Source of the DNA: Candidatus Levyibacteriota bacterium
GTDB taxonomy: Bacteria; Patescibacteriota; Microgenomatia; Levybacterales; UBA12049
DNA: 64,000 nt
Direction: 5' to 3'
Assembly: GCA_016182425.1 (NCBI GenBank)
Contig: JACPGP010000014.1
Coordinates: forward strand, 26,846-90,845
In this document: in pieces, positions 741-46,819 of the stretch
Numbering within the stretch: the first letter of the stretch is position 1
Layout: each line of letters starts with the position of its first letter
Program-made: the position numbers and the translations under genes
Notes under the pieces: generated by a model
Seen by the model: only the letters and a program-made list of their open reading frames with translations
The model's database searches: none
What the model was told of the DNA's origin: nothing

Positions 741-1274
741 ATGAGAATAGGAATAGATATATCGCAAATTGCATATGAGGGGACAGGAGTTGGAGAATAC
801 TTAAGACAGCTAGTTGAAGAACTTTTGAACCTTGATAGAGATAATGAATACGTTCTCTTTTTCTCGAGTCTTAGGAGAAAAATTCAAAATTCAAAATTCA
901 AAATTCAAAATGATAATCCAAAAGTAAAAATTACAACATTTTTGTTTCCACCTGTCTTGCTTGATCTTCTTTGGAATAGGCTGCATATTTTTCCAATTGA
1001 GTGGCTTATTGGCAATGTTGATGTGTTTATTTCCTCCGACTGGACTCAACCACCAACAAAGGCCAAAAGAGCAACTATTTTGTATGATTTGATTGTCTAT
1101 ATGTATCCAGAGGGGACTGATAAAAAAATAGTATCGGTTCAGAAAAGACGATTGAGTTGGGTAAAAAAAGAATGCGATATTGTCTTTTGTATATCTGAAA
1201 GCACAAAAAAAGACGCTAAAAAGATTTTAGGAATTGATCAAAAAAAACTACATGTAATTTATCCTGGAGTTTAA
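741..1274 (+). CDS. GT4 glycosyltransferase, N-terminal Rossmann domain only (truncated, possible pseudogene)
   Basis: MRIGIDIS...GVGEY start aligns with the full-length paralog at 10531. The ORF stops right after the YPGV interdomain motif. A complete GT4 starts 3 nt later. Confidence 0.55.
   Translation: MRIGIDISQIAYEGTGVGEYLRQLVEELLNLDRDNEYVLFFSSLRRKIQNSKFKIQNDNPKVKITTFLFPPVLLDLLWNRLHIFPIEWLIGNVDVFISSDWTQPPTKAKRATILYDLIVYMYPEGTDKKIVSVQKRRLSWVKKECDIVFCISESTKKDAKKILGIDQKKLHVIYPGV
879..911 (+). repeat. tandem heptamer AAAATTC x ~4.7, in-frame
   Basis: Direct reading gives aaaattc at 879, 886, 893 and 900, plus aaaat. It encodes KIQNSKFKIQN. Confidence 0.95.
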
Positions 1275-1276
1275 GT

Positions 1277-2389
1277 ATGCTTATTGGTATCGATGGAAAT
1301 GAGGCAAATGTGGAGAAAAGAGTGGGGATTTCGGAATACAACTTCGAACTTCTTAAGAAGTTCGAAGAATTTCATCTGCCAAATCGGCGGATCAAATTTC
1401 AAATTTACCTCAAAAATTCTCCACTGCCTCATATGCCGAAAGAGCGCGATGGGTGGAAATATCGAGTTGTTCGTCCAAAAAAACTTTGGTCGCAAATAGG
1501 ATTGCCGCTTGATTTATATCTTCATAAACCAAGACCAGATGTTTTTTTTAGTCCTACACACTATGCTCCGCGCTTTTCGCCAGTTCCAACGATAATGTCT
1601 ATTATGGACCTTTCATACTTACATTATCCTGAGATGTTCAAAAAGTCAGATCTTTTCCAGCTTCGAAATTGGACATCATACTCAATCAAAAAGGTTGCCA
1701 AGATTTTAACTATTAGCCGTGCTTCTAAAGATGATATAATCAAGGCGTATAAGGTTTTGGAAGATAAGATTGTCGTGACCTATCCGGGAATAAAGCTCAA
1801 AACAACAATGCAAAATTCAAAACTGCTTAAAGAAAAATACAAAATTGATGGAAATTATATTTTATTTGTAGGAACACTGCAGCCAAGAAAGAATATAGTT
1901 AGGTTAATTAAAGCTTTCTCTAAACTTAAAGACAGAAATGCTGTTAATTTAGTTATTGTAGGGAAAAAGGGCTGGATGTACGAAGATATTTTGCGTTCCC
2001 CGAGGCAGTTTAACGTTGAAGATCGTGTGAAATTTCTGGAGTTTGTTTCGGATGAAGATTTATCATTTTTTTATAAAAATGCTCTATTTTTTGTCCTTCC
2101 GAGTTTATACGAAGGGTTTGGACTACCAGTTTTAGAAGCAATGAATTATGGGTGTCCTGTGATAACAAGTAATATCTCAAGCCTGCCGGAAGCAGGCGGA
2201 GATGCGGCGCTTTATGTTGATCCAAAAAATGTCGATGATATAGCCGAAAAAATAGAGTTGTTACTTAACGATGAAAAACTGCGAAAGCAAATGATTGATA
2301 AAGGATATAAACAAGTAAAAAAATTCTCATGGGAGAAAACTGCCAAAGAAACTTTAAAAGTGCTTGAGGAGGTAACAAATGCTAAATAA
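1277..2389 (+). CDS. GT4 (GT-B) glycosyltransferase
   Basis: C-terminal EX7E region LPSLYEGFGLPVLEAMNYGCPVITS. Paralog of the gene at 10531. Confidence 0.8.
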   Translation: MLIGIDGNEANVEKRVGISEYNFELLKKFEEFHLPNRRIKFQIYLKNSPLPHMPKERDGWKYRVVRPKKLWSQIGLPLDLYLHKPRPDVFFSPTHYAPRFSPVPTIMSIMDLSYLHYPEMFKKSDLFQLRNWTSYSIKKVAKILTISRASKDDIIKAYKVLEDKIVVTYPGIKLKTTMQNSKLLKEKYKIDGNYILFVGTLQPRKNIVRLIKAFSKLKDRNAVNLVIVGKKGWMYEDILRSPRQFNVEDRVKFLEFVSDEDLSFFYKNALFFVLPSLYEGFGLPVLEAMNYGCPVITSNISSLPEAGGDAALYVDPKNVDDIAEKIELLLNDEKLRKQMIDKGYKQVKKFSWEKTAKETLKVLEEVTNAK

Positions 2390-2933
2390 AATTATAAGGA
2401 GAACTAATGCTGTTTTTTTAGAATTTGAGGTTTTAATTCTTCATTGTGTTGGATATATCCCATCTCATCACATTAGACGTTTTTTTTATCGTCTGGCAGG
2501 AGTAAAAATTGGTAAAGGTTCTACAGTTCACACTGGCGCACGATTCTATAACCCAAAGAACATAAGTATCGGAAACGATTCTATTATTGGAGAGGGGGCA
2601 GTTTTAGATGGGAGAGCAAGACTTGCTATTGGCGATCATGTGGATATTGCAACTGATGTAATGATCTATAACTGCGAGCATGATGTAAATAGTTCCGATT
2701 TTGCTCCAGTTTGTGGCCATGTTATTATTGAGGACTATGTATTTATTGGTCCGCGAGTAATTATTTTACCTGGGGTAGTAATTGGTAAAGGAGCTGTTGT
2801 TGCAGCAGGTGCAGTGGTCACAAAAAATGTTGACGCATTCACAATTGTTGGGGGTGTGCCTGCAAAAGTTATCGGAGAAAGAAAAGTAAAAGATTTACAT
2901 TACAAACTTGGACGAGCTGCCTGGTTTCGATAG
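2379..2933 (+). CDS. left-handed beta-helix (hexapeptide) O-acetyltransferase, WcaF-like
   Basis: Hexapeptide repeats: IGKGSTV, IGNDSIIGEGAVL, IGPRVIILPGVVIGKGAVVAAGAVV. Confidence 0.75.
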   Translation: MLNKIIRRTNAVFLEFEVLILHCVGYIPSHHIRRFFYRLAGVKIGKGSTVHTGARFYNPKNISIGNDSIIGEGAVLDGRARLAIGDHVDIATDVMIYNCEHDVNSSDFAPVCGHVIIEDYVFIGPRVIILPGVVIGKGAVVAAGAVVTKNVDAFTIVGGVPAKVIGERKVKDLHYKLGRAAWFR

Positions 2934-2940
2934 GTGAGAT

Positions 2941-3822
2941 ATGGTTGTATTATCAGTCATTATTCTAAATTATAATACTAAAGATTTAACAAAACAATGT
3001 CTAACATCGCTAGAAAATCATTATCGGGAAGAATTAAGAAAAGGAGTATTTGAAATTATTGTTGTTGATAATGCATCGACCGATACTTCGGCATCGGTAA
3101 TCTCAAATCTCAAATCTCAAATCTCAAATCTTACATTGATCAAAAATAAAGAAAATGTTGGATTTTCAAAAGGAAATAATATAGGAGCAAAAAATGCAAA
3201 AGGGAGATATTTATTGTTTTTAAATTCCGATACCGAAGTAGGAGATAATGGCTTACTTAGTGCGGTTTCATATGTAGAAGAACATAAAGATATTGGTGTT
3301 TTGGGCGCCAAATTACGTAACGCGGATGGTTTTGATCAGGCTTCTACCGGAAAATTTTATACCATAGGGAACGTTTTTTTAATGCTTTTTTTGGGTGAGC
3401 GATTCGGTTTATTACGCACCAGTCCAAAAACAATATCTGAAGTAGACTGGGTGAGTGGGGCGGCGCTATTGATAAGAAAAAAATTGTTTGATCAGCTTGG
3501 TGGGTTTGATGATCATTTTTTTATGTATATGGAAGATATGGAGCTTTGCTATCGCGTCAAAAAAATTAGCTATCAGGTTGTTTTTTATCCATACACAGTT
3601 ATTTATCATAAGGAGCTAGGCAGCTCGAATAGGGGTTTTGCAATTGCACATATTTATAAAGGACTTCTTTACTTTTACAAGAAACATATGAATTATATTC
3701 AGTATGTAATAGTTAAGATGTTGCTTATTACAAAAGCCTATGTCGCTATTGCTATTGGCATCTTTACTAATAATACATATTTAAGATCAACGTATAGACA
3801 AGCTCTGGCTTTTTCGCTATGA
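2941..3822 (+). CDS. GT2 glycosyltransferase
   Basis: SVIILNYNT...VVDNASTD...GFSKGNNIG...FLNSD...MEDMELCYR. Confidence 0.8.
   Translation: MVVLSVIILNYNTKDLTKQCLTSLENHYREELRKGVFEIIVVDNASTDTSASVISNLKSQISNLTLIKNKENVGFSKGNNIGAKNAKGRYLLFLNSDTEVGDNGLLSAVSYVEEHKDIGVLGAKLRNADGFDQASTGKFYTIGNVFLMLFLGERFGLLRTSPKTISEVDWVSGAALLIRKKLFDQLGGFDDHFFMYMEDMELCYRVKKISYQVVFYPYTVIYHKELGSSNRGFAIAHIYKGLLYFYKKHMNYIQYVIVKMLLITKAYVAIAIGIFTNNTYLRSTYRQALAFSL
3099..3131 (+). repeat. tandem heptamer AATCTCA x ~4.7, in-frame
   Basis: Direct reading gives aatctca at 3099, 3106, 3113 and 3120, plus aatct. It encodes ISNLKSQISNL. Confidence 0.95.
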
Positions 3823-8476: not shown

Positions 8477-9664
8477 ATGAAAATACTTATTGTTTCCTCT
8501 TTTCTTCCATATCCTCTTTTTTCTGGTGGACATGTCAGGCTTTTTAATCTTATTAAGGAGTTAGCGACAAAACATGAATTGACTATTGTTTGTGAAAAGA
8601 GATCACACCAAACAGATGCAGATATTATGGCAGTTAAGAGGTACTGCCAAACGCTCATTACCGTTGAGAGAAAGAAGCAGTGGTCGTTTCCCAATGTTTT
8701 TAGGACTGGTTTTTCTCCATTTCCATTTCTTCTGGTTGGACACACGAATGATGAAATGAGGCGAGCTATTATTAGACTTATTAATGAAAAATCATTTGAT
8801 CTTATTCATGTGGAAACGTTTTATGTCATGCAGAATATTCCAGACACCCCTCTCCCTGTTGTCTTAGTAGAACACAACATTGAGTATCTAGTATATAAAC
8901 GATATACAAAGATGGCTCCTTTTTTGTTTAGGCCCTTATTATATTTTGATGTTGCGAAACTTAAATATTGGGAAGAGATTTATTGGAGCAAGGCGACAAA
9001 ATTAGTAGCAGTATCGGAGGAAGAAAAAAAATTAATGAATAGAGAAGATGTGGAAGTCGTGTCAAATGGTGTAGATATACAAAAATTCAGAATTCAGAAT
9101 TCAGAATTCAGAATTAATAAAAAGGAGAAAAGAATATTATTCATTGGGGATTTTAAATGGTTACAGAATCGGGATGCTGTAGGGTGGATACTAAACGAAA
9201 TTTGGCCGGAAATAAAATCAAAAATAGAAGCGAAACTGTGGATTGTGGGGAAGGATATTCCTGATTCAATTAAAAAATTGTCGAGTGACCAAAATGTTAT
9301 TTTTGATGAAAATGCGCCAAAAGAGACTGCTGAAATTTTTGCCAAGGCAGATGTGCTTCTGGCCCCGATTAGAGTTGGGGGCGGAACGAGTTATAAAATA
9401 TTAGAAGCAATGGCAAGCGGTGTTCCTGTTATTACAACACCATTGGGTAGAGAGGGGATTGATGCAAAGGACAGGCAAGAAATTTTGCTGGCAGAGGATA
9501 CAGATGAATTTGTTAAAAATATTGTCGATATTTTTGATAATGAAAAACTCTATAAAAAAATCGCGCATAATTCCAGAAAACTAATTGAGGAAAAATATGA
9601 TTGGAAAATAATTGTAAAAAAACTTGAAGATGTTTATCGAGATGCAATTACTACGTATGATTAA
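8477..9664 (+). CDS. GT4 glycosyltransferase
   Basis: FLPYPLFSGGHVR N-terminus, NGVD linker, and GGGTSYKILEAMASGVPVITT in the C-domain. Confidence 0.8.
   Translation: MKILIVSSFLPYPLFSGGHVRLFNLIKELATKHELTIVCEKRSHQTDADIMAVKRYCQTLITVERKKQWSFPNVFRTGFSPFPFLLVGHTNDEMRRAIIRLINEKSFDLIHVETFYVMQNIPDTPLPVVLVEHNIEYLVYKRYTKMAPFLFRPLLYFDVAKLKYWEEIYWSKATKLVAVSEEEKKLMNREDVEVVSNGVDIQKFRIQNSEFRINKKEKRILFIGDFKWLQNRDAVGWILNEIWPEIKSKIEAKLWIVGKDIPDSIKKLSSDQNVIFDENAPKETAEIFAKADVLLAPIRVGGGTSYKILEAMASGVPVITTPLGREGIDAKDRQEILLAEDTDEFVKNIVDIFDNEKLYKKIAHNSRKLIEEKYDWKIIVKKLEDVYRDAITTYD
9084..9115 (+). repeat. tandem heptamer AATTCAG x ~4.6, in-frame
   Basis: Direct reading gives aattcag at 9084, 9091, 9098 and 9105, plus aatt. 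It encodes FRIQNSEFRI. Confidence 0.95.
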
Positions 9665-10547
9665 ATTATCTATTATTATTGTTTCATATAATACAAAAGA
9701 TATTTTACAAGCATGCCTCGAGTCTGTTTATAGAAATCTTCCTAAAGATGCAACTGAAGTTATTGTTGTTGATAATGCATCAACTGATGGCTCAGTAGAA
9801 ATGGTGGAAAAAGAATTCCCAAAAGTTATTGCAATAGAAAATAAGGAAAATGTTGGATTTTCAAAAGCAAATAATATTGGCCTTAAAAAGGCGGAAGGAA
9901 AATATATATTATTTCTTAATTCGGATACAGTCGTGTGTAAAAATACGCTTGATGAGATGATTGTATTTATGGATTCGTATCCACATGCGGGGGCTGCAAC
10001 GTGTCGAGTCGAACTAGCAAATGGCAGGCTAGACGATGCTTCACATAGAGGGTTTCCAACTCCTTGGAATGCATTTTGTCATTTCTCTGGGTTATCGAGA
10101 ATTTTTCCTAAGTCTCGGATTTTCGCTGGATATTCTATGGGATGGGAAGATTTATCAAAAATCCACGAAATTGATGCATGCGCAGGTGCGTTTATAATTG
10201 TAAGAAGAATAGCTGGAGAAGAAGTTAATTGGTGGGACGAGGATTTTTTTTGGTATGGAGACGATTTAGATTTTTGTTATAGATTGAAAGAGAAAGGGTG
10301 GAAGATATATTTCGTTCCGACTATTTCAATTATGCATTACAAAGGGGTTTCTTCGGGTATCAAAGAGATCTCTGAACATCTTACAACAGCAGATAAAGAT
10401 ACAAAGAGACGTGCGACAGAAGCTCGCTTTGAAGCAATGAAGATTTTTTACAAAAAACATTACCAAAAAAAATATCCCAAATTTTTTACGTGGTTAGTGT
10501 TGAAAGGGGTTGATTTGTTATACTACAAACATGCGAATCGGGATTGA
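9657..10547 (+). CDS. GT2 glycosyltransferase
   Basis: LSIIIVSYNT...VVDNASTDGS...GFSKANNIG...FLNSD...GDDLDFCYR. The ATG at 9657 (ATGATTAA overlap with the upstream stop) is preferred over the ORF-track start at 9624. Confidence 0.8.
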   Translation: MIKLSIIIVSYNTKDILQACLESVYRNLPKDATEVIVVDNASTDGSVEMVEKEFPKVIAIENKENVGFSKANNIGLKKAEGKYILFLNSDTVVCKNTLDEMIVFMDSYPHAGAATCRVELANGRLDDASHRGFPTPWNAFCHFSGLSRIFPKSRIFAGYSMGWEDLSKIHEIDACAGAFIIVRRIAGEEVNWWDEDFFWYGDDLDFCYRLKEKGWKIYFVPTISIMHYKGVSSGIKEISEHLTTADKDTKRRATEARFEAMKIFYKKHYQKKYPKFFTWLVLKGVDLLYYKHANRD

Positions 10548-11622
10548 TGCCAGGTTGTGGAATGAGAGTGGAGTTGGGCGATACATCAGAAACCTCGTTG
10601 CCCAGTTACAAATTTTGGATAAGAAGAATGAGTATATTCTGTTTGTTTTAGGAAAAGACTATGTCGGCATTAAAGGAAACAATTGGAGATTAGTAAAAGC
10701 TAATATTCGTTGGCATACAATTGAAGAGCAGTTAAAGTTTCCATCAATTCTCTACAAGGAAAAACTAGATTTGGTGCACTTTCCTTATTTTTCAGTTCCT
10801 ATTTTTTACAACAAGCCTTTTGTCGTAACAATTCACGATCTGATATTGCATCATTTTCCAACAGGGCAGGCTTCGACACTCCCCATGCCTTTTTATTGGG
10901 CAAAACATTTAGGATATAAATTTGTTATATCACAAGCTGCTAAGCGCGCAAAAAAGATTATCGCAGTATCGAATGCAGCAAAAGATGAAATCGTTGATCA
11001 TTTACATGTTGATCTTAATAAGGTAGTTGTGACATATGAGGGAGTAGATCTTCCAAGCTCAAAGTTACAACTTAAAACTCGAAGCTATTTTCTTTATGTG
11101 GGGAATGCATATCCGCATAAGAATCTGGAGAGATTGATTGAAGCGTTTGCAGGAATCAGGAATCAGGAATCAGGAATCAAGCTAATACTCGTTGGGAAAG
11201 AGGATTATTTTTATAAGAGACTAAAAGAAAAAGTACAAAAGATGGGACTTGAGAAAAAAATAATTTTTCGTGGAGAGGCGACAGACGAAGAACTCGCAGG
11301 TTTATACAAAAATGCATTAGCACTTGTTATTCCGTCTCTTATGGAAGGATTTGGATTGCCTATTTTGGAGGCGATGGCAAATAAATGTTTGGTTTTAGCA
11401 TCTGATACTCCAGCTCATCACGAAATTGCAGACGACGCAGCAATCTATTTTAATCCGAATAATACAGAAGATATAGCAGAGAAAATGAAAGCTAGTTACA
11501 ATGATACGCATCATTATAGTGAAAATATTGAGAAGGGTTTTGAGAGAAGTAAAATATTTTCGTGGGAAAAAATGGCAAAAGAGACATTAAAGATTTATGA
11601 AAGTAGCATTGGTCTACGATAG
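10531..11622 (+). CDS. GT4 glycosyltransferase
   Basis: MRIGIDARLW...GVGRY N-terminus and IPSLMEGFGLPILEAMANKCLVLAS. The start at ATG 10531 is preferred. Confidence 0.8.
   Translation: MRIGIDARLWNESGVGRYIRNLVAQLQILDKKNEYILFVLGKDYVGIKGNNWRLVKANIRWHTIEEQLKFPSILYKEKLDLVHFPYFSVPIFYNKPFVVTIHDLILHHFPTGQASTLPMPFYWAKHLGYKFVISQAAKRAKKIIAVSNAAKDEIVDHLHVDLNKVVVTYEGVDLPSSKLQLKTRSYFLYVGNAYPHKNLERLIEAFAGIRNQESGIKLILVGKEDYFYKRLKEKVQKMGLEKKIIFRGEATDEELAGLYKNALALVIPSLMEGFGLPILEAMANKCLVLASDTPAHHEIADDAAIYFNPNNTEDIAEKMKASYNDTHHYSENIEKGFERSKIFSWEKMAKETLKIYESSIGLR
11151..11179 (+). repeat. tandem heptamer AGGAATC x 4, in-frame
   Basis: Direct reading gives aggaatc at 11151, 11158, 11165 and 11172. It encodes GIRNQESGI. 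Confidence 0.95.
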
Positions 11623-12688
11623 AGTGAATAAATGGGGAGGGGCAGAGAGAGTATTACTTTCGCTGCATGAGATTTTTCCGCAAGCTCCGCTGTATACTTC
11701 AGTATACAACCCGATGAAGACACCATGGGCAAATGTATTTGTTTTAAAGACATCATTTCTTCAAAAATTTCCTTACGCGTCGTCTGTTCATGAATTATTG
11801 CCAGTGTTTATGCCGCTGGCCTTTGAGAGCTTTTCGTTTGATCAGTATGATCTTGTTATTTCGGTAACATCAGAAGCAGCAAAAGGGATTATTACAAAAC
11901 CAGGCACGCTTCATATTTGCTATTGTCTTACTCCTACTCGTTACTTATGGAGCGGGTATGAAGAATATTTTAAAAATCCAGTTAATCGATTTTTTACACA
12001 GCCAGCAGTGTCGTATCTTCGTAAATGGGATTATATTGCAGCACAACGTCCAGATGCGTATATTGCTATTTCGAAAGAGGTACAAAAAAGAATTAAAAAA
12101 TATTATGGAAGAGAATCAGAAGTAGTGTATCCTCCAGTTGATCTGCCCAGTGTCAAGTATCAAGTGTCAAGTATCAAGGGAAAGGAGGCTGGTTTTTTTC
12201 TTGTTGTTTCTCGGCTTGTGCCTTATAAGCGAATTGATATCGCCATTAAGGCATGTAATAGATTGCAGTTGCCGCTTAAAATTATAGGTACTGGATCGGA
12301 AGAAGGGAGACTCAAAAGCATTGCTGGTCAAACAATCGAGTTCTTGGGTAACTTGACTGATAGTGAGCTGGTAGGGTATTATAAAGCTTGTCGTGCGCTC
12401 ATTTTTCCCGGCCTGGAGGATTTTGGGGTTGTCGTCGCAGAAGCCCAGAAGTTTGGTAGACCAGTAATTGCGTTTTATGGGGGAGGAGCGCGTGAAATTG
12501 TTAAGGAGCAAAAGACAGGATTATTCTTTTATCCTCAGACAACAGAAGCACTCGTAAGTACACTTATTATGTTTGAGAAAAAAAGGTTTTCTTCTGCGAT
12601 TTGTGCCGATAATGCGGAAAGATTTTCGTTAGCGTTATTTAAGAAGACGTTTATGTCATTGATAGAAAAATTAAAGGATCACGTTTAA
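11597..12688 (+). CDS. GT4 glycosyltransferase
   Basis: KWGGAERVLLSL N-terminus, YPPVD linker, and FPGLEDFGVVVAEAQKFGRPVIA. Confidence 0.75.
   Translation: MKVALVYDRVNKWGGAERVLLSLHEIFPQAPLYTSVYNPMKTPWANVFVLKTSFLQKFPYASSVHELLPVFMPLAFESFSFDQYDLVISVTSEAAKGIITKPGTLHICYCLTPTRYLWSGYEEYFKNPVNRFFTQPAVSYLRKWDYIAAQRPDAYIAISKEVQKRIKKYYGRESEVVYPPVDLPSVKYQVSSIKGKEAGFFLVVSRLVPYKRIDIAIKACNRLQLPLKIIGTGSEEGRLKSIAGQTIEFLGNLTDSELVGYYKACRALIFPGLEDFGVVVAEAQKFGRPVIAFYGGGAREIVKEQKTGLFFYPQTTEALVSTLIMFEKKRFSSAICADNAERFSLALFKKTFMSLIEKLKDHV
12149..12179 (+). repeat. tandem heptamers AGTGTCA/AGTATCA alternating (14 bp x ~2.2), in-frame
   Basis: Direct reading gives agtgtca agtatca agtgtca agtatca agg. It encodes SVKYQVSSIK. 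Confidence 0.95.
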
Positions 12689-19397: not shown

Positions 19398-20270
19398 ATG
19401 GATACGTATCACAAATCGGTTCTTTTACAAGAAGTTTTATCGTTTCTTAAAGTTGAGGGTGGAAAAAAATACATTGACGCAACATTGGGTGGAGGAGGAC
19501 ATACAAAAAAGATTTTAGAGCTGGGTGGAGAGGTGTTGAGTATAGATGTTGATCAAGATGCTATAGATTACGTTAGATCAAAGATCAAAGATTTAGGACG
19601 ATTAACACTGGTACGGGGGAATTTTAAGGATATTGGGGAGATTGCACGTTTACATGGGTTTGAGAAAGTAGCGGGAATTCTATTTGATTTAGGAGTATCA
19701 AGTCATCAATTAGATACAGCTTCCCGCGGTTTTAGCTTTCAGAAAGAAGGCCCACTCGATATGCGAATGGACAAAAACCTTTCTCTGAAAGCGGCTGATC
19801 TTATTAATGTTTTAACGAAAGGAGAGCTCTATGAGCTTTATCGTAGATTGGGTGAGGAGCGTCATGCTCGCGCCATTGCTTCGGCTGTTGTTAGCGCCCG
19901 TCAAATAAAGCCGATTGCAACAACAACAGAACTGGCAAAAATAGTGCAGCTTGGCGCGCCTAAAAAATTTTCGAATATAAACCAGGCAACAAAAGTTTTT
20001 CAAGCATTGCGTATAGCAGTGAATGATGAATTAAACAGTCTTGAGGTTACTTTGCCAAAATCTCTGGATTTGCTTGAAAAAGAGGGAAGATTGGTAGTTA
20101 TTTCTTTTCATTCCCTGGAAGATCGAATTGTAAAAAATGCATTTCGTTTCTTTTCGAATGCGAAAAAAGGAAAAATAATTACCAAAAAACCGATAACACC
20201 AAACTGGGAAGAGATTAAAAAAAACAAAAGGAGCAGGAGCGCCAGGATGCGCGTATTTGAAAAATTATAA
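19398..20270 (+). CDS. rsmH: 16S rRNA (cytosine1402-N4)-methyltransferase RsmH
   Basis: HKSVLLQEVL, DATLGGGGHT, DLGVSSHQLD, ISFHSLEDRIVK. Confidence 0.9.
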   Translation: MDTYHKSVLLQEVLSFLKVEGGKKYIDATLGGGGHTKKILELGGEVLSIDVDQDAIDYVRSKIKDLGRLTLVRGNFKDIGEIARLHGFEKVAGILFDLGVSSHQLDTASRGFSFQKEGPLDMRMDKNLSLKAADLINVLTKGELYELYRRLGEERHARAIASAVVSARQIKPIATTTELAKIVQLGAPKKFSNINQATKVFQALRIAVNDELNSLEVTLPKSLDLLEKEGRLVVISFHSLEDRIVKNAFRFFSNAKKGKIITKKPITPNWEEIKKNKRSRSARMRVFEKL

Positions 20271-23412: not shown

Positions 23413-24830
23413 GTAAGATTAAATCAATTCATTTTGTAGGCATAAAAGGGGTTGGGATGGCGCCTTTGGCGATTATTGCTAAAGAAGCAGGATTTCGTGT
23501 TTCCGGTTGTGACATCAAGGAGGAGTTTATTACAGATGAGCCACTACAAAAAGCCGGTATTATTCCAATTGTGGGTTTTAGTAAGAATCATATTAGGTCT
23601 TGTGATTTAATTATTACTACAGGAGCACATGGCGGGTTTGATAACCTTGAGGTTGTAAGCGCAAGAGAGCAGGGTATCCCTATATGGACCCAGGGAGAGG
23701 CTGTTGGGAAATTTATGGAGGGGGAGATTTTTAATAGGAAGCAGTTTGGTATTTCGATTACCGGATCACATGGTAAAACTACCACAACCGCCATGCTGGC
23801 GACTGTTTTGAAGCAGGCGGGAATGGATCCTTCGTATATTGTTGGAACCGGCATTGTTCCATCTTTGGGAAGCAACGGACATTATGGTCGTGGAAAATAT
23901 TTTGTTGCCGAGGCAGATGAGTATGCGACTGAACCCAGTTATGATAAAACCGTTAAATTTCTGTGGCAGCGTCCGGAAATTGCGATTTTTACCAATATTG
24001 AGCTTGATCATACCGATTTGTATCCATCGGTTGATGTTATCCGAGAGGCATTTTTGCAATTTGCCAATCAGCTTCCTTTAAAGGGTGTGCTTATAGCGTA
24101 TGGTTCTGATCCACAGGTGCATAAACTATTGAGAGAGTTCAGAGGTCATTCGATTACCTATGGGTTTACACAAGACAATGATTTTGCCATTACAAGGGTT
24201 AGTAATTCCGATGCGCAAACATTCTTTTGGTTGTCAAACAAAGGTAATTCGCTTGGAGAATTTACGCTTTCCATCCCTGGAGAACATAATACTCTTAATG
24301 CAACTGCGGCAATTATAGCCAGTCTTGAGTGCGGAATTTCGATTGATTTAATAAAGCGAGGACTTATCAAGTTTGTGGGAAGCAAGAGGAGATTTGAATA
24401 CGTTGGCACGCTGCCTTCAGGAGCATTACTATATGATGATTATGCACATCACCCTACAGAGATAAAAAAGACTTTGTCGGCATTTCGAAAGCGATTCCCA
24501 AAATATAAATTAGTTTGTTTTTTTCAACCGCATACTTATTCTCGAACAAAGTCATTGTTCGATCAATTTGTTAGTTCATTTAATGCTGCGGATACTGTTA
24601 TTATAAGCAATATTTATTCATCTCTTCGTGAAAGACCAGATCCAACCATATCATCGAAGCTTCTGGTTGATGGAATACGTAAGTTTCATAAAGAGGCGCT
24701 CTTTTTGCCAGAGCTTTATGATGTGGTAGAATATATCAAACGACAACAGTATGGAAAGGATACTGTTGTTATTACTATGGGAGCCGGCGATATCTACAAA
24801 ATAGGTCAAAAGTTAAAAGTCAAAAGTTAA
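23409..24830 (+). CDS. murC: UDP-N-acetylmuramate--L-alanine ligase
   Basis: IHFVGIKGVGMAPLA, ITGSHGKTTTTAM, DDYAHHPTEI. Confidence 0.9.
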   Translation: MSKIKSIHFVGIKGVGMAPLAIIAKEAGFRVSGCDIKEEFITDEPLQKAGIIPIVGFSKNHIRSCDLIITTGAHGGFDNLEVVSAREQGIPIWTQGEAVGKFMEGEIFNRKQFGISITGSHGKTTTTAMLATVLKQAGMDPSYIVGTGIVPSLGSNGHYGRGKYFVAEADEYATEPSYDKTVKFLWQRPEIAIFTNIELDHTDLYPSVDVIREAFLQFANQLPLKGVLIAYGSDPQVHKLLREFRGHSITYGFTQDNDFAITRVSNSDAQTFFWLSNKGNSLGEFTLSIPGEHNTLNATAAIIASLECGISIDLIKRGLIKFVGSKRRFEYVGTLPSGALLYDDYAHHPTEIKKTLSAFRKRFPKYKLVCFFQPHTYSRTKSLFDQFVSSFNAADTVIISNIYSSLRERPDPTISSKLLVDGIRKFHKEALFLPELYDVVEYIKRQQYGKDTVVITMGAGDIYKIGQKLKVKS

Positions 24831-24836
24831 AAGTTA
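24806..24836 (+). repeat. tandem heptamers TCAAAAG/TTAAAAG alternating (14 bp x ~2.2), spanning the murC stop and abutting the murB start
   Basis: Direct reading gives tcaaaag ttaaaag tcaaaag ttaaaag tta. The murC TAA is at 24828-30 and the murB ATG at 24836. Confidence 0.95.
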
Positions 24837-37314: not shown

Positions 37315-38445
37315 ATGAATATGCGACTTATTATTGCTGTCGGCGGGGGCGGGCATTTTGCTCCTGCTCTTGCGATACTTCCATTTCTGCCAAAAGGGGC
37401 GGAGGTTCTTATTATCGGGAGAAAGTATTCTTTTGAGGGAGATAAAGCGTTGTCTCTGGAGTACCAAACAGCCAAGCGCCTAGGTATTTTGTTTGCTCCG
37501 CTTACTACAGGAAGACTGCAGAGAGTGTTTACACGCCATACCATTCCTTCGCTTTTGCGGTTTCCTCATGGCGTTTTGCAGGCATATAAAATCTTGCGTG
37601 TGTTTAAACCTAAGGTGGTTTTATCTTTTGGCGGATATATCTCGTTGCCGGTTGTTCTGGCAGCGTATTTTCTGCGGATTCCGGTTGTTCTTCACGAACA
37701 GACACTAGAGGCTGGCATGGCCAATAGAATTGGCTCGTTTTTTGCCAAGAAAGTGTGTGTTTCGTGGGAAACATCAATTAGATTTTTTCCTCATTCAAAA
37801 ACAGTATTGACGGGAAACCCGGTAAGAAAATTTTCTCCGGCTCAGCCGGACAATTCTCAATTCCCAATTTCCAATGAAAAATTACCACTTGTCTATATTA
37901 CAGGGGGGAGTGCGGGATCACACGCGATTAACGTATTGGTTGAGGGATGTATAAATAAGCTTCTTGAAAAGTTTATTGTATTGCATCAAACAGGCGACTT
38001 TAGGCAATACGAAGACTACGAGAGGCTTTGGCGTATTCGAAATAATCTGCCAAAGCCAATAAAAGACCGATACTTGCCGGTAAAATTTGTAGAGCCATTA
38101 CAGGTGGGGGCGGTGCTGGGTAAAGCAGATTTAGTAGTTGCCCGTTCAGGGATAAACACGGTTACAGAGCTTATTTTTTTTGGAAAACCGACTATTTTTA
38201 TTCCTCTCCCCTTTTCCCAAAATGATGAGCAGAAGAAAAACGCCAACTTTATGCGCGACCTCGGCCTGGCAGAAGTTTTGCCGCAGCATACTTTGACGCC
38301 AGATAAATTGCGCGCGCTTATCTTTTCGTTGTATGCAAATTTAGATGAGTATGTAAAACATGCCAAAAAAGCCCGAAGTATGGTAAAAGAAAACGCGCCG
38401 GAGAAGATTGTGGAAGTACTTATAAGTGTTTCGGCCGCAAAATAG
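37315..38445 (+). CDS. murG: UDP-GlcNAc:lipid I GlcNAc transferase
   Basis: AVGGGGHFAPALA, ITGGSAGSH, ARSGINTVTELIFFGKPTIFIP. The ATG at 37315 is preferred. Confidence 0.9.
   Translation: MNMRLIIAVGGGGHFAPALAILPFLPKGAEVLIIGRKYSFEGDKALSLEYQTAKRLGILFAPLTTGRLQRVFTRHTIPSLLRFPHGVLQAYKILRVFKPKVVLSFGGYISLPVVLAAYFLRIPVVLHEQTLEAGMANRIGSFFAKKVCVSWETSIRFFPHSKTVLTGNPVRKFSPAQPDNSQFPISNEKLPLVYITGGSAGSHAINVLVEGCINKLLEKFIVLHQTGDFRQYEDYERLWRIRNNLPKPIKDRYLPVKFVEPLQVGAVLGKADLVVARSGINTVTELIFFGKPTIFIPLPFSQNDEQKKNANFMRDLGLAEVLPQHTLTPDKLRALIFSLYANLDEYVKHAKKARSMVKENAPEKIVEVLISVSAAK
37836..37876 (+). repeat. 15-bp palindrome plus degenerate heptamers CAATTCT/CAATTCC/CAATTTC/CAATG in the murG interdomain linker
   Basis: tccggc-tca-gccgga (37836-50), then the heptamer tract at 37851-76. 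Together they encode SPAQPDNSQFPISNE. Confidence 0.8.
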
Positions 38446-43986: not shown

Positions 43987-43993
43987 CAAGTTT

Positions 43994-46819
43994 ATGTTTA
44001 AGCCAGTATCTCCCAAAGTTGATTTCCCAAAGCTTGAGGAAGAAATTACAAAGTATTGGAAAGAGAAAAAAATTTTTGAAAAGTCTATTTCTTCCCGTCC
44101 AAAAGATAAAACATGGACCTTTTTGGATGGGCCTCCCTTTGTGACGGGTGTCCCTCATTACGGATCTTTGCTCTCAAGTATCCCCAAAGATGTCTTTGGC
44201 AGGTATTGGACCATGAAGGGATATCGAGTGCGTCGAGTCTGGGGATGGGATGGTCATGGTTTGCCGATTGAAAATAAAGTAGAAACAGCACTAAACATAA
44301 AATCCAAAAAAGAGATTGAGGAAAAGGTGGGAGTAAAAAGATTCATTGAGGAGTGTAAAAAATACGTCAATACTGTTTCTTTGGAATGGGAGTGGTATGT
44401 AGATCGAATTGGCCGATGGGTTGATTTTAAAAACGCTTACAAAACGTGGGATAGAGATTACATGGAGTCTGTGATGTGGGTGTTTAAGCAAATGTACGAA
44501 AAGGGCTATATCTACAAAGGCCTTCGAGTATCGCTTTATTGTCCTCACTGCGCAACGCCAATTTCTAACTTTGAAGTAGCCATGGATGCTGAAAACTATA
44601 AAGAAGTGACAGATGCTGCTACTACCTATAAGTATCCTCTTAGGGATGAAAAAAATACCTTTATCCTTGCTTGGTCCACAACGCCGTGGAATAAAATCGT
44701 TACCCCCGCACTTGCGATTAATCCTAAATTAACTTATGTAAAAGTCAAACAAGGAAATGAGAAATATATTTTGGCTAAATCAACTTTAAAAATTCTAACA
44801 GGGAAATATGACGTGTTTGAGGAATTTAAGGGAGAAGCACTTGTTGGAAAAAAGTTTGTTCCTCATTACGACTACTACAAAATCGAAAAGGGAGAAAAGG
44901 CCTTCAAAATTATTGGTTCGGATTTTGTAACAGCCGAAGAAGGCACAGGCGTAGTAACGATTGCCGCATATGGGGAAGAAGATTTAAAAGTAATGCAGGA
45001 GCAAAATATTCATATTGAAATGCATCTTGATGAGGAAGGAACCATAAAATCAAATGTGCCTGTCTTTGGTGGTATGTATTATCTAAAGGCAAATAAAGCT
45101 GTTAACAAAGATCTGGCACTGCGCGGCTTAATTTATAAAGATGAAGAACTTCCCCATAATGTACCACTTTGTTGGCGATGCCACACCAGGCTCTATTATG
45201 CACCAATCAATGCATGGTATGTAAATGTCCAAACACTAAAAGCTTTAATGAAAAAAACCAATGAAAACGTGCAATGGTTTCCCTCCCACTTTAAGTATGG
45301 AAGATTCTTAAAGAGCATGGAGAATGCGCCTGATTGGAATATTTCACGAAATCGCTATTGGGGTTCTCCTGTGCCTGTGTGGGAATGCGAAAGCTGTGGG
45401 GAGCGATTTGTACCTGGATCGATTGAGGAGCTTGAGAAGACAAGTGGGAAAAAAATTGCAGATCTTCATAAACCAGAGATTGACGAGGTGATTGTTAAGT
45501 GTAAAAGGTGTGGCAAGGATGCCAGGCGTACTACCGAAGTTTTAGATAGCTGGATCGAGGCAGGATCGGCATCTTTTGCCGAGCGCCATTTTCCGTTTAA
45601 TAAGCAAGAAAAGCTTGGGGAGTTCTTTCCTCCTGATTTTATTGCCGAATATACCGGGCAGATTCGGGCCTGGTTTTATGTATTGCATGTCATTGGAGCG
45701 GCGTTATATAAAAGTGAGGCATTCAAGAATGTAGTTGTTGAGGGGGTAATCTTGGGAACTGATGGACGGAAAATGAGCAAGAACTATGGCAATTATCCGG
45801 ACCCAAAAGAAATGCTGCGAAAATACGGCGGCGATGCTCTAAGACTTTACTTAATGGGAAGCCCAGTGATGCATGGAGAAGATATTTTAATTTCTGAAGA
45901 GAAATATAAAGAACAAGTGAGAGGAATACTTCTTATTTTGTGGAATGTTTATAATTTTTTTGTAGGTAATGCAAATGTAGATCAGTATCAACCCCGATTA
46001 AATAGGGGTCAAGTATCAGAAAATGTTTTAGATCGGTGGGTTATAGCACTTTTACAAAAATTGATAAAAGAGATAACAGAGGCTTTAGAGAAGTACGATA
46101 CTGTTTTAGCTATAGAAAAAGCAGAAAAATTTGTCGGTGATCTTTCAACGTGGTACATCCGGCGAAGCAGAGAAAGAGTTGGTCCGACAGCTGATGAGGG
46201 GAAAGACAAACAGGCATTTTACCACACATGTCATAGTGTCTTAACAACACTTTGTAAGCTACTTGCGCCAATAACACCGTTTGTGACAGAAGAGATTTAT
46301 AGGAATCTCGCAGGAGAGGAGTCAGTGCATTTGGCGCAGTGGCCACAGTTTACAGATCCCTCCAGTTCGGCGGGCAGGCACAGTTCACAGATACTAAATG
46401 AAATGGATAATGGTATTACGCTTGCTTCAAAGATACATGCTTTGCGAAAAGAAACAAATGTCAAAGTACGAATTCCTTTACGAAAACTTAACTACAGAGG
46501 CCCACAAGAACCGAGAAAAGACATCCTAAAGATTGTTCTTAGTGAAGTGAATGTTTATGAACTTATCTATGTGGGTAAAGCCGATGAATATGAGGTCGAG
46601 GGTGATACAACTTTGAAAAATCAAGATATCGAAGCAGGAAGAGCGCGGGATATTATTCGAGCCATTCAGGAAGAGCGTAAAATTCTTGGTACAAATTTAG
46701 ATGAAAGAGTAAATGTTGTTTTGCCCTCTTGGCCAAGCTCGTTTGAGGCAGAGATAAAAAAGAAGGCGCTAGTAGGATTTATTTCTAAAGGAGAAACGTT
46801 TAAGGTTTTGCGGTCATGA
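43994..46819 (+). CDS. ileS: isoleucine--tRNA ligase
   Basis: GPPFVTGVPHYGS (HIGH region), KMSKN, CP1 editing insert, and Cys clusters CWRCHT / CESCG / CKRCG. Confidence 0.9.
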   Translation: MFKPVSPKVDFPKLEEEITKYWKEKKIFEKSISSRPKDKTWTFLDGPPFVTGVPHYGSLLSSIPKDVFGRYWTMKGYRVRRVWGWDGHGLPIENKVETALNIKSKKEIEEKVGVKRFIEECKKYVNTVSLEWEWYVDRIGRWVDFKNAYKTWDRDYMESVMWVFKQMYEKGYIYKGLRVSLYCPHCATPISNFEVAMDAENYKEVTDAATTYKYPLRDEKNTFILAWSTTPWNKIVTPALAINPKLTYVKVKQGNEKYILAKSTLKILTGKYDVFEEFKGEALVGKKFVPHYDYYKIEKGEKAFKIIGSDFVTAEEGTGVVTIAAYGEEDLKVMQEQNIHIEMHLDEEGTIKSNVPVFGGMYYLKANKAVNKDLALRGLIYKDEELPHNVPLCWRCHTRLYYAPINAWYVNVQTLKALMKKTNENVQWFPSHFKYGRFLKSMENAPDWNISRNRYWGSPVPVWECESCGERFVPGSIEELEKTSGKKIADLHKPEIDEVIVKCKRCGKDARRTTEVLDSWIEAGSASFAERHFPFNKQEKLGEFFPPDFIAEYTGQIRAWFYVLHVIGAALYKSEAFKNVVVEGVILGTDGRKMSKNYGNYPDPKEMLRKYGGDALRLYLMGSPVMHGEDILISEEKYKEQVRGILLILWNVYNFFVGNANVDQYQPRLNRGQVSENVLDRWVIALLQKLIKEITEALEKYDTVLAIEKAEKFVGDLSTWYIRRSRERVGPTADEGKDKQAFYHTCHSVLTTLCKLLAPITPFVTEEIYRNLAGEESVHLAQWPQFTDPSSSAGRHSSQILNEMDNGITLASKIHALRKETNVKVRIPLRKLNYRGPQEPRKDILKIVLSEVNVYELIYVGKADEYEVEGDTTLKNQDIEAGRARDIIRAIQEERKILGTNLDERVNVVLPSWPSSFEAEIKKKALVGFISKGETFKVLRS
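46344..46392 (+). repeat. heptamer tract CACAGTT TACAGAT | CACAGTT CACAGAT split in its centre by a 21-bp GC-rich insert (46358-46378)
   Basis: Direct reading. The insert ccctccagttcggcgggcagg encodes PSSSAGR in-frame. Confidence 0.9.

Follow-up and report, generated by a model that had tools for sequence, protein, structure and literature searches.

The window, by which we mean the whole 64,000-nucleotide stretch of DNA analysed, contains about ten tracts of ~30 bases in which a seven-nucleotide unit is repeated in frame within glycosyltransferase (GT), cell-wall and tRNA synthetase genes. An earlier note, made from the letters alone, had listed eight such tracts. All eight were found, with minor coordinate corrections (e.g. 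11150, 12178, 24805), and all tracts lie on the sense strand of plus-strand ORFs, as it had held. Absent from its list were an interrupted tract in ileS (45983–46019), a remnant at 61101–61114 and short arrays at 1392 and 19575.

Perfect arrays are present at four positions. At 879–911, (AAAATTC)x4.7 is translated as KIQNSKFKIQN within an ORF (741–1274, 177 aa) whose domain content is GT4 N-terminal only. At 3099–3131, (AATCTCA)x4.7 occupies the GT2 slot of gene 2941–3822, immediately 3' of the DNASTDTSA codons. In the GT4 gene 8477–9664, (AATTCAG)x4.6 at 9084–9115 is translated as KFRIQNSEFRI and forms the interdomain linker C-terminal of NGVD. In another GT4 gene (10531–11622), (CAGGAAT)x4.3 at 11150–11179 falls in the loop between LIEAF and LILVG, where the C-terminal domain begins. 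A third GT4 gene (11597–12688) carries a period-14 array of the form [AB][AB], (AGTGTCA AGTATCA)x2.1, in the interdomain linker following PPVD (12149–12178). A second GT2 slot (61101–61170; gene 60901–61896), C-terminal of DGGSTDATAS, holds an (AATTTCA)x2 remnant at 61101–61114, followed by a GC-rich hairpin insert of ~50 nt (CACCTCGGAGG...CCATCCGAGGTG) with a predicted fold of –28 kcal/mol.

Among the cell-wall genes, a period-14 array, (GTCAAAA GTTAAAA)x2.2 at 24805–24836, covers the final codons and TAA stop of murC and extends to the murB start, and a degenerate CAATTCT CAATTCC CAATTTC CAATG tract at 37851–37876 encodes the MurG interdomain linker between GNPVR and KLPLVYITGGS. Two IleS loops are occupied. 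At site 2 (45983–46019), remnants of an AGTATCA array, C AGTATCA A and TCA AGTATCA G, stand on either side of the 17-nt insert CCCCGATTAAATAGGGG; at site 3 (46344–46392), CACAGTT TACAGAT is separated from CACAGTT CACAGAT by the GC-rich 21-nt insert CCCTCCAGTTCGGCGGGCAGG (46358–46378). Two short plus-strand arrays, (AGATCAA)x2.6 in an rsmH-like methyltransferase gene (19575–19592; possibly a small or young array) and (TCAAATT)x2.1 in the GT gene 1277–2389 (1392–1406), are weak taken alone; the window has 18 perfect two-copy heptamers, alongside 36 such hexamers and 1 octamer.

Period specificity and recurrent slots

The excess of sevens is specific. When periods 5–21 were scanned for perfect arrays of at least three units, only period 7 was returned, with four arrays in the window, each of at least four units. 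Under a 15-of-18 tract criterion, the window contains seven period-7 tracts, one of period 10 and none of periods 4–6, 8, 9, 11 or 12, and the excess holds against codon-shuffled controls (mean 0.03, maximum 1, in 200 shuffled windows). In 80 related Levybacteria loci there are 78 period-7 tracts versus 1–6 for each of periods 4–6 and 8–11, and in 470 kb of unrelated metagenome contigs carrying a (CAGAATT)4 array there are 205 versus 1–21 for other periods. The 71 coding tracts contain 40 different units. The earlier note was right that what is conserved is a periodic nucleotide pattern rather than one peptide. Intergenic tracts (10 in 105 kb) are about twice as dense as coding ones. The strands differ sharply, with 71 tracts in plus-strand ORFs (981 kb) and 1 in minus-strand ORFs (310 kb), an asymmetry for which the explanation favoured below does not account.

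The tracts are not scattered; they are confined to a few recurrent slots, namely the loop that follows D(G/N)xSTD in GT2 enzymes, the interdomain linker of GT-B enzymes and MurG, four loops of IleS, and the rplU–rpmA spacer. IleS holds 36 of 85 tracts under the strict criterion and 40 under a looser one (81 orthologues), nearly all of the 40 falling in its four variable-length loops. Of the 25 non-IleS host ORFs in relatives, 22 are GT2, GT-B or MurG glycosyltransferases, with tracts at fixed positions. GT-like ORFs make up ~11% of coding DNA, and tracts are ~27-fold denser in GT genes than in other non-IleS coding DNA. The envelope-gene bias pointed out earlier is therefore real, and it reflects a few inherited slots. 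Across lineages, occupied slots are also found in the essential genes ileS, murG, leuS and argS. MurC carries a tract too. Other units occupy the equivalent MurG site in three relatives (L013, L082 and L049) and IleS site 3 in seven, and GT2 orthologues of 60901–61896 have VISNFQFPISN-type tracts in the second GT2 slot.

The suggestion that these positions are structurally permissive stands. Tract positions coincide with domain boundaries. In the AlphaFold (AF2) model of GT4 8477–9664 (mean pLDDT 94), tract residues 203–213 belong to the linker between the two domains. Mean pLDDT is 81–83 in the pair of 10-residue blocks that contain them, among the lowest values of the model. Rickettsia palindromic elements, reportedly described by Ogata et al. 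(2000), are selfish DNA that has entered protein-coding genes in frame. They resemble the present tracts in that repeats of a non-coding type are tolerated in frame at surface-exposed sites of housekeeping proteins, and differ in being dispersed palindromic repeats of 100–150 nt rather than tandem heptamers.

Unit turnover in slots of constant length

Within a slot, length is held while the unit changes. The GT4 linker containing 9084–9115 is 19 aa long in 79 of 116 orthologues (55–74% identity), and in none of the 116 is it shorter by 7 aa. Its peptides are many and different, yet mostly heptad-periodic (3–4 of 4 heptad matches in 41 orthologues), with F/Y and I/V positions conserved. At the DNA level, the window has GAATTCA, one relative (L234) has a perfect AAGTTCA array in identical phase, and another (L233) has a decayed one, a pattern that reads as concerted evolution in place rather than recent insertion. 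At the site of 3099–3131, the syntenic L233 has a period-14 AATCTCA/AATTTCA version, and [AB][AB] arrays of this kind point to copying steps of 14 nt.

Similar turnover is seen in tRNA synthetases. L037 and L045, whose IleS proteins are 81% identical and whose flanking DNA aligns closely, have different units at two IleS sites. At site 4, the phase T???AAT is kept in 10 species and the peptides retain an alternating hydrophobic pattern. The closest relative (L013) has at site 2 an unbroken AGTATCA/AGTGTTA/AGTATAA array with the same total length as 45983–46019. Outside the CPR, in Verrucomicrobia ArgRS, a single loop holds CAGAATT, AATCCGC, ACATTCA or TCGTCAC arrays between flanks of 86–91% nucleotide identity, and the unit divergence (2–4 of 7 positions) is close to the neutral-drift expectation at that identity. 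Orthologous arrays are often just 1–2 unit positions apart with phase kept (GAATTCA/AAGTTCA; CAGAATT/CAGAATC/CAGAATG), and in perfect arrays synonymous-site identity between copies is 100%.

Small GC-rich inserts are located inside these arrays. The earlier note had linked tracts and inserts, and the association is borne out; its idea that tracts are by-products of inserts appears to run in the wrong direction. The GT2 tract at 3099 and the GT2 gene of L017 have TCGGT(AATCTCA)n in common, although the rest of the gene aligns poorly and the two may be paralogues. In L017, the tract is interrupted by a 30-nt GC-rich core and runs on in unbroken phase on its far side, and no target duplication was found around this core. 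This one comparison of filled and empty type suggests that the insert entered a pre-existing tract.

Translation shapes the units as well. After rotation, TCA is present in every listed unit save the GTTAAAA variant, as had been reported. A 7-nt unit passes through all three reading phases, which leaves no room in it for a stop triplet, and AT-rich units then need a C at the junction of T and A runs. We conclude that the "TCA core", earlier read as a recognised motif, is mostly stop-codon avoidance across three reading phases: TCA is present in none of the 10 intergenic tracts, and 8 of these have a consensus unit with a stop triplet (TAA/TGA). Of the 61 coding tracts whose consensus unit lacks stop triplets, TCA occurs in 38. 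The expectation under a stop-free null matched for composition is 23 (sd 3.6), which leaves an excess beyond the stop-codon filter.

Origin and role of the tracts

With moderate confidence, we explain the tracts as heptanucleotide microsatellites in long-lived permissive slots, with copies homogenised in place and units filtered by translation. In Candidatus Levybacteria (CPR lineage), heptanucleotide arrays would persist chiefly within genes, in slots passed to orthologues and paralogues at roughly constant length. The 4–5 copies per slot would repeatedly be made identical by slipped-strand misalignment of 7 or 14 nt, resolved by copying or correction with length unchanged, while the consensus unit drifts at an approximately neutral rate; together, homogenised copies and a drifting unit would explain why relatives show perfect arrays of different units with site and phase shared. 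Units with any stop triplet would be purged, which would give AT-rich units their TCA(A/G) core, and tolerance would extend to only about 10–11 residues. The small GC-rich inserts (17–50 nt) would land preferentially in such arrays. The analysis shows that the tracts exist, are specific to period 7, recur in the same slots, change unit at constant length, are filtered for stop codons and have inserts within them; we infer the homogenising mechanism, the neutrality, and the reasons for 7 nt and for ~32 nt. Counting against this explanation, we infer rather than observe that copies in essential genes are homogenised at constant length, the 116 GT4 orthologues include no linker shorter by 7 aa, and simple slippage does not explain the sharp length mode of 32–33 nt, which holds across contigs of 33–69% GC and in which many arrays begin and finish with AATT.

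It is possible, but unlikely, that the ~32-nt arrays are very small elements that move or are "written" by enzymes. Dedicated machinery, perhaps related to the mover of the GC-rich cores, would insert or rewrite them, and new arrays would repeatedly overwrite old slots, which would not drift. This would suit the recurrence of (CAGAATT)n in >120 metagenome contigs with the above length mode (42/83), including an exact [G](AATTCAG)4AATT in 32/83 that is identical to window 9084–9115. The 33-nt form of 3099–3131 likewise recurs in viral contigs of 65–67% GC, and AT-rich perfect arrays in contigs of 60–69% GC resemble insertions, which also tells against homogenisation in place, as does the hint of between-locus copying in L082, where AATTTTC occurs at four unrelated loci (permutation p = 0.0015). 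The TCGGT(AATCTCA)n shared by the two otherwise poorly aligned GT2 genes fits as well, as do close relatives that differ by a net gain of +15 or +38 nt, and there is a precedent, in that small dispersed repeats (SDRs) were reportedly found embedded in Nostoc heptamer repeats (Elhai et al. 2008). However, no transposase, target duplication or donor was found. In viral contigs, (ACAGTAT)4, a control unit of matched composition, is about as frequent (3 loci) as (CAGAATT)4 (4 loci), so no particular unit is special. Orthologous arrays differing by 1–2 positions in the same phase are what in-place concerted evolution predicts, and the ArgRS unit divergence is about that of neutral drift.

Rather improbable is the earlier suggestion that the tracts are contingency loci, in which slippage switches glycosyltransferases on and off; at one unit per step, this would diversify the glycans on the surface of a CPR bacterium that lives as an episymbiont. 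A one-unit change does bring an in-frame stop 0–36 codons past the tract, truncating every host gene, in agreement with the earlier claim for three of the tracts, and the clustering of tracts in glycosyltransferases might be due to selection for switching, not to the tolerance that our preferred explanation assumes. In addition, the murG of one MAG (L049) is frameshifted exactly within its tract. There are precedents in neuO, with AAGACTC (PMC13001214), and the hmw1A promoter (PMC8262952), where the number of 7-nt units determines whether a surface-related gene is in frame or how strong its promoter is; those arrays are longer and have documented copy-number variation, whereas none is seen here and the hosts include essential genes. 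No unit-number difference was found in tract-spanning contigs from 15 sequencing runs of one species, a weak test because the population is ~99.98–100% identical; independent contigs agree for 12149–12178 (7), 24805–24836 (6) and 46344–46392 (3). This constancy weighs against switching, and it also counts against the slippage of our preferred explanation. Furthermore, the densest host is the essential IleS, with MurG, MurC, LeuRS and ArgRS hosts too, arrays are no longer than 4–5 units, and just 1 of about 72 coding tracts is out of frame in consensus MAGs. Logan contigs frequently end at perfect tracts, but such breaks are expected in any case because 31-mers in 32- to 33-nt perfect arrays are pure repeat, common to many organisms.

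We regard as very improbable the earlier alternative that a multimeric factor binds the arrays, in DNA or RNA, by reading TCA/UCA at 7-nt spacing. Heptad operator arrays exist, e.g. for the omega protein of pSM19035, and the TCA excess left by the stop filter is in its favour, as is the post-transcriptional binding proposed for TAACTGA repeats (PMC4679880). Nevertheless, the units are many (40 in the 71 coding tracts) and vary between orthologues at a shared site, TCA is missing from the intergenic tracts, the tracts lie at protein loops within ORFs rather than at promoters or 5' ends, and no Rfam families overlap them. Selection for a heptad peptide such as xF[KR][IV]Q[NS]SxF[KR][IV], with the nucleotide periodicity secondary, is scarcely credible despite the conserved F/Y and I/V positions of the GT4 linker and the hydrophobic pattern at IleS site 4, as it would not yield perfect nucleotide repeats or the denser intergenic tracts, peptides are wholly different between sites and between close relatives, and the AF2 model puts the tract in a lower-confidence linker.

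Comparison with known heptanucleotide repeats

Bacteria are known to have an excess of heptanucleotide repeats, and the present tracts, which we favour as homogenised microsatellites, represent it in an unusual form, within coding regions. As cited in later work, heptanucleotides outnumber every other class of long SSR in prokaryotes, and polymerase slippage over a ~7-nt contact was proposed to explain this (Mrazek, Guo and Shah 2007, via PMC4679880, PMC4692102). The over-representation of 7-nt units and their diversity are shared. According to the same citing accounts, units that are not multiples of 3 are mainly extragenic and in large genomes, whereas here ~85% are in frame in genes of a small CPR genome, at recurrent slots that include essential genes and conserve their length. 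The GGGAATC/GGGGAYT repeats of Xanthomonas and Nostoc also prefer about four units, are genome-wide, and vary in length and sequence at the same locus between close species (Rehm et al. 2015, PMC4692102). Their four-unit preference is attributed to G4 formation, which cannot explain it here because AT-rich arrays of the window too prefer 4–5 units.

TAACTGA direct repeats (2–6 copies) occur in Beggiatoaceae, cyanobacteria and Bacteroidetes, and horizontal spread by a mechanism not known is suspected (MacGregor 2015, PMC4679880). They comprise a single unit, mostly right upstream of start codons, and only the reverse TCAGTTA is found within ORFs, including a MurG, because the forward unit gives three-frame stops. 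Along with the prokaryotic heptanucleotide SSRs, the nearest known parallel is the cyanobacterial STRR with nested SDRs. These are reportedly heptamer arrays of varied unit with repeated inserts of ~20–30 nt (Mazel 1990; Elhai et al. 2008), in another phylum, while arrays of the window lineage are mostly coding. Geobacter metallireducens has elements, in and between genes, that consist of four tandem copies of GGACCGG or five of MTYCTGA (Aklujkar et al. 2009, PMC2700814). Each of these families has one conserved unit and is read as regulator sites, unlike the many units here; the reverse complement of MTYCTGA, TCAGRAK, includes the window unit TCAGAAT.

Heptanucleotide arrays in the window and its relatives

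Tandem Repeats Finder and direct reading located all eight heptanucleotide tracts of the earlier note where it had placed them. Four are perfect arrays of 4.3–4.7 units (879–911, 3099–3131, 9084–9115 and 11150–11179), two are perfect period-14 arrays in which two heptamers alternate (12149–12178 and 24805–24836), one is degenerate (37851–37876), and one is interrupted by a GC-rich insert of 21 nt (46344–46392). Additional to these are an interrupted ileS array (45983–46019), a two-unit remnant with a GC-rich hairpin in a second GT2 glycosyltransferase gene (61101–61170), and short arrays at 1392 and 19575. At least seven different heptamer units occur in the window. Among periods 5–21, only period 7 yields perfect arrays of three or more units; under a 15-of-18 match criterion the window holds seven tracts of period 7, one of period 10, and none of periods 4–6, 8, 9, 11 or 12. 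The excess over shuffled controls is borne out, as 200 codon shuffles of the window gave a mean of 0.03 period-7 tracts against the seven observed, which rules out chance or codon usage as their source. The first tract (879–911) is carried by a 177-aa ORF (741–1274) that contains the N-terminal domain only of a GT4 glycosyltransferase; a full-length GT-B gene (1277–2389) begins 3 nt after it, and the ORF may be a remnant of a duplicated or truncated glycosyltransferase.

The same period-7 excess is lineage-wide, with 78 tracts against 1–6 for periods 4–6 and 8–11 across 1.33 Mb from relatives (80 loci centred on IleS); the closest species representative shares 76% IleS identity with the window organism. 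By a strict criterion 36 of 85 tracts lie inside IleS, and by a looser one 40, all but a few of them in four variable-length loops and with units that vary from species to species. The 25 other host ORFs in relatives include 10 GT2, 9 GT-B, 3 MurG and 2 L21 C-termini. The tract directly follows DGGSTDxT in all 10 GT2 proteins, lies in the interdomain linker or at YGGV[tract]avFIGRLdeqtG in GT-B, and at GNPVR[tract]lPl.yvTGGS in MurG. Glycosyltransferase-like ORFs make up about 11% of the coding DNA and carry tracts at a density about 27-fold that of other non-IleS genes. The window tracts occupy exactly these slots, and Pfam boundaries put them at domain junctions. In an AlphaFold model of the GT4 encoded at 8477 (mean pLDDT 94), residues 203–213 fall in the interdomain linker, and the two 10-residue blocks covering the tract have mean pLDDT values of 81–83, among the lowest in the model.

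Most tracts (72 of 85) are internal to ORFs, while per kb intergenic DNA holds about twice as many as coding DNA. The spacer between rplU and rpmA is a tract hot spot (L075:12780–12840, also L025 and L033, all loci of relatives), where the units contain TAA, as expected outside ORFs; the L075 spacer is about 38 nt longer than that of the 92%-identical L074. Across relatives L013–L092 and the window, ORFs on the IleS strand (981 kb) hold 71 tracts and those on the opposite strand (310 kb) hold one, and none of the 18 opposite-strand GT2-like ORFs in this set carries a tract. GC skew is positive along the whole window.

Turnover of units at constant length

The slots are old, and the copies inside them change in concert. 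Of orthologues of the GT4 at 8477 we compared 120 (identity 55–74%) and could delimit the linker in 116. Between NGVD and ILFIGDF the linker has 19 residues in 79 of the 116; its peptide shows heptad periodicity with 4/4 matches in 16 and 3/4 in 25, yet the heptads are diverse (KFKVQSS, KFKIQNS, RFKIKDL, KYQISNI, KFQISNF, EFRIQNS). None of the 116 has an empty site or a linker one heptad shorter, and for lack of such 7-aa-shorter linkers we rejected cycles of 21-nt loss and gain as the homogeniser. At the DNA level, the window linker is (GAATTCA)n, that of L234 a perfect (AAGTTCA)n in the same phase, and that of L233 decayed and AGATTTA-like. The phase T???AAT is likewise conserved at IleS site 4 across ten species, with three middle bases that vary and are uniform inside each array, and alleles with and without a tract are of equal length there. 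At two sites in IleS, L037 and L045 (81% IleS identity) carry different units between flanks that align closely as DNA. In separate cases, alleles with a tract differ in net length from those without one by 0, +3, +9, +15 and +38 nt, which indicates that arrays partly overwrite older sequence and are not simply added, and the common occurrence of [AB][AB] period-14 arrays points to copying in 14-nt steps.

Arrays of this kind also occur outside the CPR. Scanning metagenome contigs for (CAGAATT)4 returned at least 120 stretches on contigs of 33–69% GC, from which 80 loci were kept. Among the matches listed, array length peaks sharply at 32–33 nt (42 of 83 arrays), 32 of the 83 have the exact form [G](AATTCAG)4AATT found in the window, hosts include GT2 after DDGSTD, LeuRS and ArgRS, and 470 kb of kept loci hold 205 period-7 tracts against 1–21 for other periods. 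One of these hosts is a Verrucomicrobia ArgRS, and homologues that are 87–93% identical overall carry at least eight different heptad peptides in one loop after YAYARIKSIFRK. Their DNA slot holds (CAGAATT)5, (AATCCGC)4.6, (ACATTCA)n or (TCGTCAC)n downstream of a 486-nt flank that is 86–91% identical, and some neighbours differ at just one unit position in the same phase, such as CAGAATT, CAGAATC and CAGAATG. Under rapid homogenisation, neutral drift of the consensus predicts roughly the unit divergence observed at this flank identity, 2–4 of 7 positions. Many arrays of other bacteria form convergent pairs, in which an array and its reverse complement lie 10–60 nt apart (metagenome loci L130, L133, L158, L178, L182, L191 and L192), in agreement with the description from Xanthomonas; the Levybacteria window has none.

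The TCA(A/G) core that the earlier note saw in nearly every unit is real as an enrichment but probably not an intrinsic motif. The consensus unit is stop-free in 61 of 71 coding tracts, and 38 of these 61 contain TCA, where 23 (sd 3.6) are expected under a stop-free null matched for composition. Within an ORF, translation takes a heptamer array through all three phases, so its unit can hold no stop triplet in any rotation, and in AT-rich units the T before an A-run is therefore bridged by C. Naive stop-avoidance and base-composition nulls give TCA shares of just 17–28% and the composition-matched null 38%, against 62% observed, so that some enrichment is left over, which accompanies the A-run and T-run structure of the units. 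TCA is absent from all 10 intergenic tracts, and TAA or TGA occurs in the consensus unit of 8 of them; with the composition-matched null, this largely rejects TCA as an intrinsic motif. As the reverse complement of TCA is TGA, such an array can code on one strand only, a constraint likewise argued for TAACTGA repeats (PMC4679880).

Origin and maintenance of the arrays

The best-supported reading is that the tracts are a coding-region variant of the prokaryotic heptanucleotide simple-sequence repeat (SSR) class. Arrays would be born rarely, survive in a few tolerant loops and be passed down to orthologues and paralogues; their periodicity would be kept up by slipped misalignment by 7 or 14 nt with copying, not an indel, as the outcome, and translation would act as a filter. 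This reading accounts for the period specificity, the recurrence of slots, the constant length, the conserved phase, the approximately neutral rate of unit turnover, the TCA core and the coding on a single strand. It leaves unaccounted for the preference for a 7-nt unit and about 4.6 units (also present in non-coding DNA and high-GC genomes), the 71:1 asymmetry between plus- and minus-strand ORFs, and the sharing of units by unrelated loci of one genome.

Heptanucleotide repeats are the most abundant long SSR class, and contact with the polymerase has been offered as the explanation (Mrazek 2007, as relayed in PMC4679880 and PMC4692102). Among the G-rich heptamers of Xanthomonas and Nostoc, four units are preferred (PMC4692102). 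In Geobacter metallireducens, elements of 4 or 5 tandem heptanucleotides lie in and between genes, and the reverse complement of the consensus MTYCTGA includes TCAGAAT (PMC2700814). Beggiatoaceae, cyanobacteria and Bacteroidetes carry TAACTGA repeats (PMC4679880). Our arrays resemble this class in their head-to-tail 7-nt copies beyond chance (seven against a shuffle mean of 0.03), in a period-7-specific, lineage-wide excess (78 against 1–6, and 205 against 1–21 among the matches listed), and in a preference for about four units (4.3–4.7 in the window; a metagenome mode of 32–33 nt among the matches listed). They differ in that the known class is mainly non-coding, whereas 72 of 85 tracts here lie inside ORFs. 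The accounts of Xanthomonas and Nostoc, of Geobacter and of TAACTGA repeats describe neither in-frame, concerted arrays of constant length at essential-gene slots nor arrays in the CPR.

A rival, which we hold to be possible but rather unlikely, is that the arrays are tiny mobile or written elements. With a similarly low probability, the notion can be broadened to a widespread, cross-phylum process, either a property of replication or repair or tiny mobile elements, that would renew or write arrays of about 32 nt at fixed gene positions and so make hypervariable in-frame loops in IleS, LeuRS, ArgRS, MurG and glycosyltransferases. Were this true, one nucleotide change spread through an array would alter three residues per heptad, and the slot beside the GT2 nucleotide-sugar motif would thus be a diversification module for CPR surface-glycan enzymes. 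Viral contigs hold 4 loci with (CAGAATT)4, 3 with the composition-matched control (ACAGTAT)4, 25 with (CAAAATT)4 and 9 with (CAAATCT)4. With the control about as common as (CAGAATT)4, no unit stands out as special, which weakens the case for (AATTCAG)4.6 as a special cross-phylum element.

Somewhat less probable still is the suggestion that the tracts are contingency loci that switch glycosyltransferases on and off. Its premise stood, in that an in silico change of one unit brings a stop within 0–36 codons, but repeat-number heterogeneity did not appear. The window species is present at 99.9–100% identity in Logan assemblies of 15 sequencing runs, and tract-spanning contigs from these runs, which are assembled and represent a population of 99.98–100% identity, show no difference in unit number. 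Because independent Logan assemblies of several runs contain the same tracts as the NCBI MAG, an assembly artefact is ruled out. Nor do 90% protein clusters give evidence of polymorphism, as they contain the window species only and differ in start-codon calls. Logan contigs (k = 31; L007–L012, L101–L103, L109 and L233) do repeatedly end in or beside perfect 30- to 33-nt arrays (window 888, 3085/3144, 9087/9109–9111 and 11150), and the NCBI MAG alone contains the GT2 protein of the 3099 tract in full. Such ends are expected in a k = 31 graph when similar arrays exist in many other organisms, and are therefore not evidence of polymorphism; shared repeat k-mers are probably their cause, hidden length heterogeneity being a less likely one. 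The hosts, moreover, are not confined to dispensable or surface genes and include IleS, MurG, MurC, LeuRS and ArgRS, which agrees with the earlier argument that tracts in essential genes speak against pure phase variation.

One murG gene of a relative (L049:1480–1620, JAJDCG010000001.1) is out of frame inside an (AAATTTC)n tract; its N-terminal part stops just past the tract and its C-terminal part resumes in frame -1. Where the frame shifts, the zero-frame codons are A_AAT_TTC, formally an X_XXY_YYZ slippery heptamer; an assembly error, a slip mutant and programmed frameshifting are each conceivable as the cause.

A binding array for a factor reading TCA at 7-nt spacing, also proposed earlier, is highly improbable, given at least seven units in the window and 40 across the 71 coding tracts that the window and relatives have together, rather than one per genome, and positions inside ORFs at protein loops rather than in promoters or 5' leaders; selection for the encoded peptide is, if anything, less credible again.

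To our knowledge, heptanucleotide repeats are the commonest long simple repeats of prokaryotes and almost unstudied, and the accepted view that we know of is that repeat units that are not a multiple of three are kept out of genes, on/off switches excepted. Here, in a CPR lineage as well as in Verrucomicrobia, non-triplet repeats persist in frame within essential and envelope genes, at positions that are conserved, and keep their length while all copies change together. They offer a natural system for studying how short tandem arrays are homogenised without frameshifts, for asking what favours 7 nt and about 4.6 units (quadruplex formation being no explanation here, because the arrays are AT-rich), and for asking whether the slots speed the evolution of glycosyltransferase loops. 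In practical terms, k = 31 assemblies break at the arrays, and MAG annotation acquires heptad peptides that look spurious and, occasionally, frameshifts.

GC-rich inserts within arrays

Two GC-rich inserts lie mid-array in the window ileS, at 46358–46378 and, with the sequence CCCCGATTAAATAGGGG, at 45992–46008, and a third of about 50 nt lies at 61115–61170 in the GT2 gene 60901–61896. In relatives, two core families have more than one member, both mid-array: CCC..TCGCCAAG..CGGGGCGGG, common to L014 and L017, and TCCATTCGRC..GCTCAGRAC, common to L078 and L090. TCGGT(AATCTCA)n is common to the GT2 array of L017 and the window's GT2 array at 3099, in genes that may be paralogous to each other; in L017, a 30-nt core splits an otherwise phase-continuous array, with no target duplication. 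IleS site 2 holds a heptamer array in L087 and a GC-rich segment in the 90%-identical L050. These two comparisons indicate that arrays are the targets of inserts and not their products, contrary to the idea that tracts are by-products of insertion. Cyanobacterial SDRs, repeats of about 21–27 nt within heptamer arrays (STRRs), offer a likeness of arrangement to the 17–50-nt GC-rich cores here; so far as is known, they are restricted to a coherent cyanobacterial subgroup, unlike the cores of Candidatus Levybacteria. SDRs of Nostoc nested in heptamer arrays were reportedly described by Elhai in 2008.

Folding z-scores of the tracts and small cores are unremarkable, save for the GAATTC-containing unit and the 61115 insert, and we therefore rejected a role in hairpins or structure; among the GC-rich cores, none but the 61115 insert has a significant hairpin. 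This insert (61115–61170) contains a strong inverted repeat, CACCTCGGAGG...CCATCCGAGGTG, with an RNA fold of -28 kcal/mol, and is read in frame as TKTFTSEESKSLLRHHPRWK.

An Rfam search of the window returned two tRNA hits only as known RNA families. At 50044–50229, a tRNA-Val(CAC)-like gene is seemingly interrupted after the D arm by about 104–110 nt, with GGGCGCATAGCTCAGTTGGTAGA as its 5' part and 50171–50229 as its 3' part (Rfam 29.5 bits). The interrupting segment consists, in order, of CCCGCCTGCACT, a complete tRNA-Val(CAC) (50089–50163) and CAGTTACGGCGGGCAGG; its ends, CCCGCC and GGCGGG, are able to pair, and the arrangement may represent one tRNA nested inside another or a tRNA-carrying GC-rich element. 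The ileS insert (46341–46378; GGCCACAGTT...CAGTTCGGCGGGCAGG) and the 3' end and flank of the tRNA-Val (50157–50181) have GGCCACAGTT and CGGCGGGCAGG in common, and the 11-mer that they share occurs in the window at those two places only. In relatives, TCCATTCGGCTAGCTCAGGAC of the second core family looks like the D arm of a tRNA. The small GC-rich inserts may derive from tRNA.
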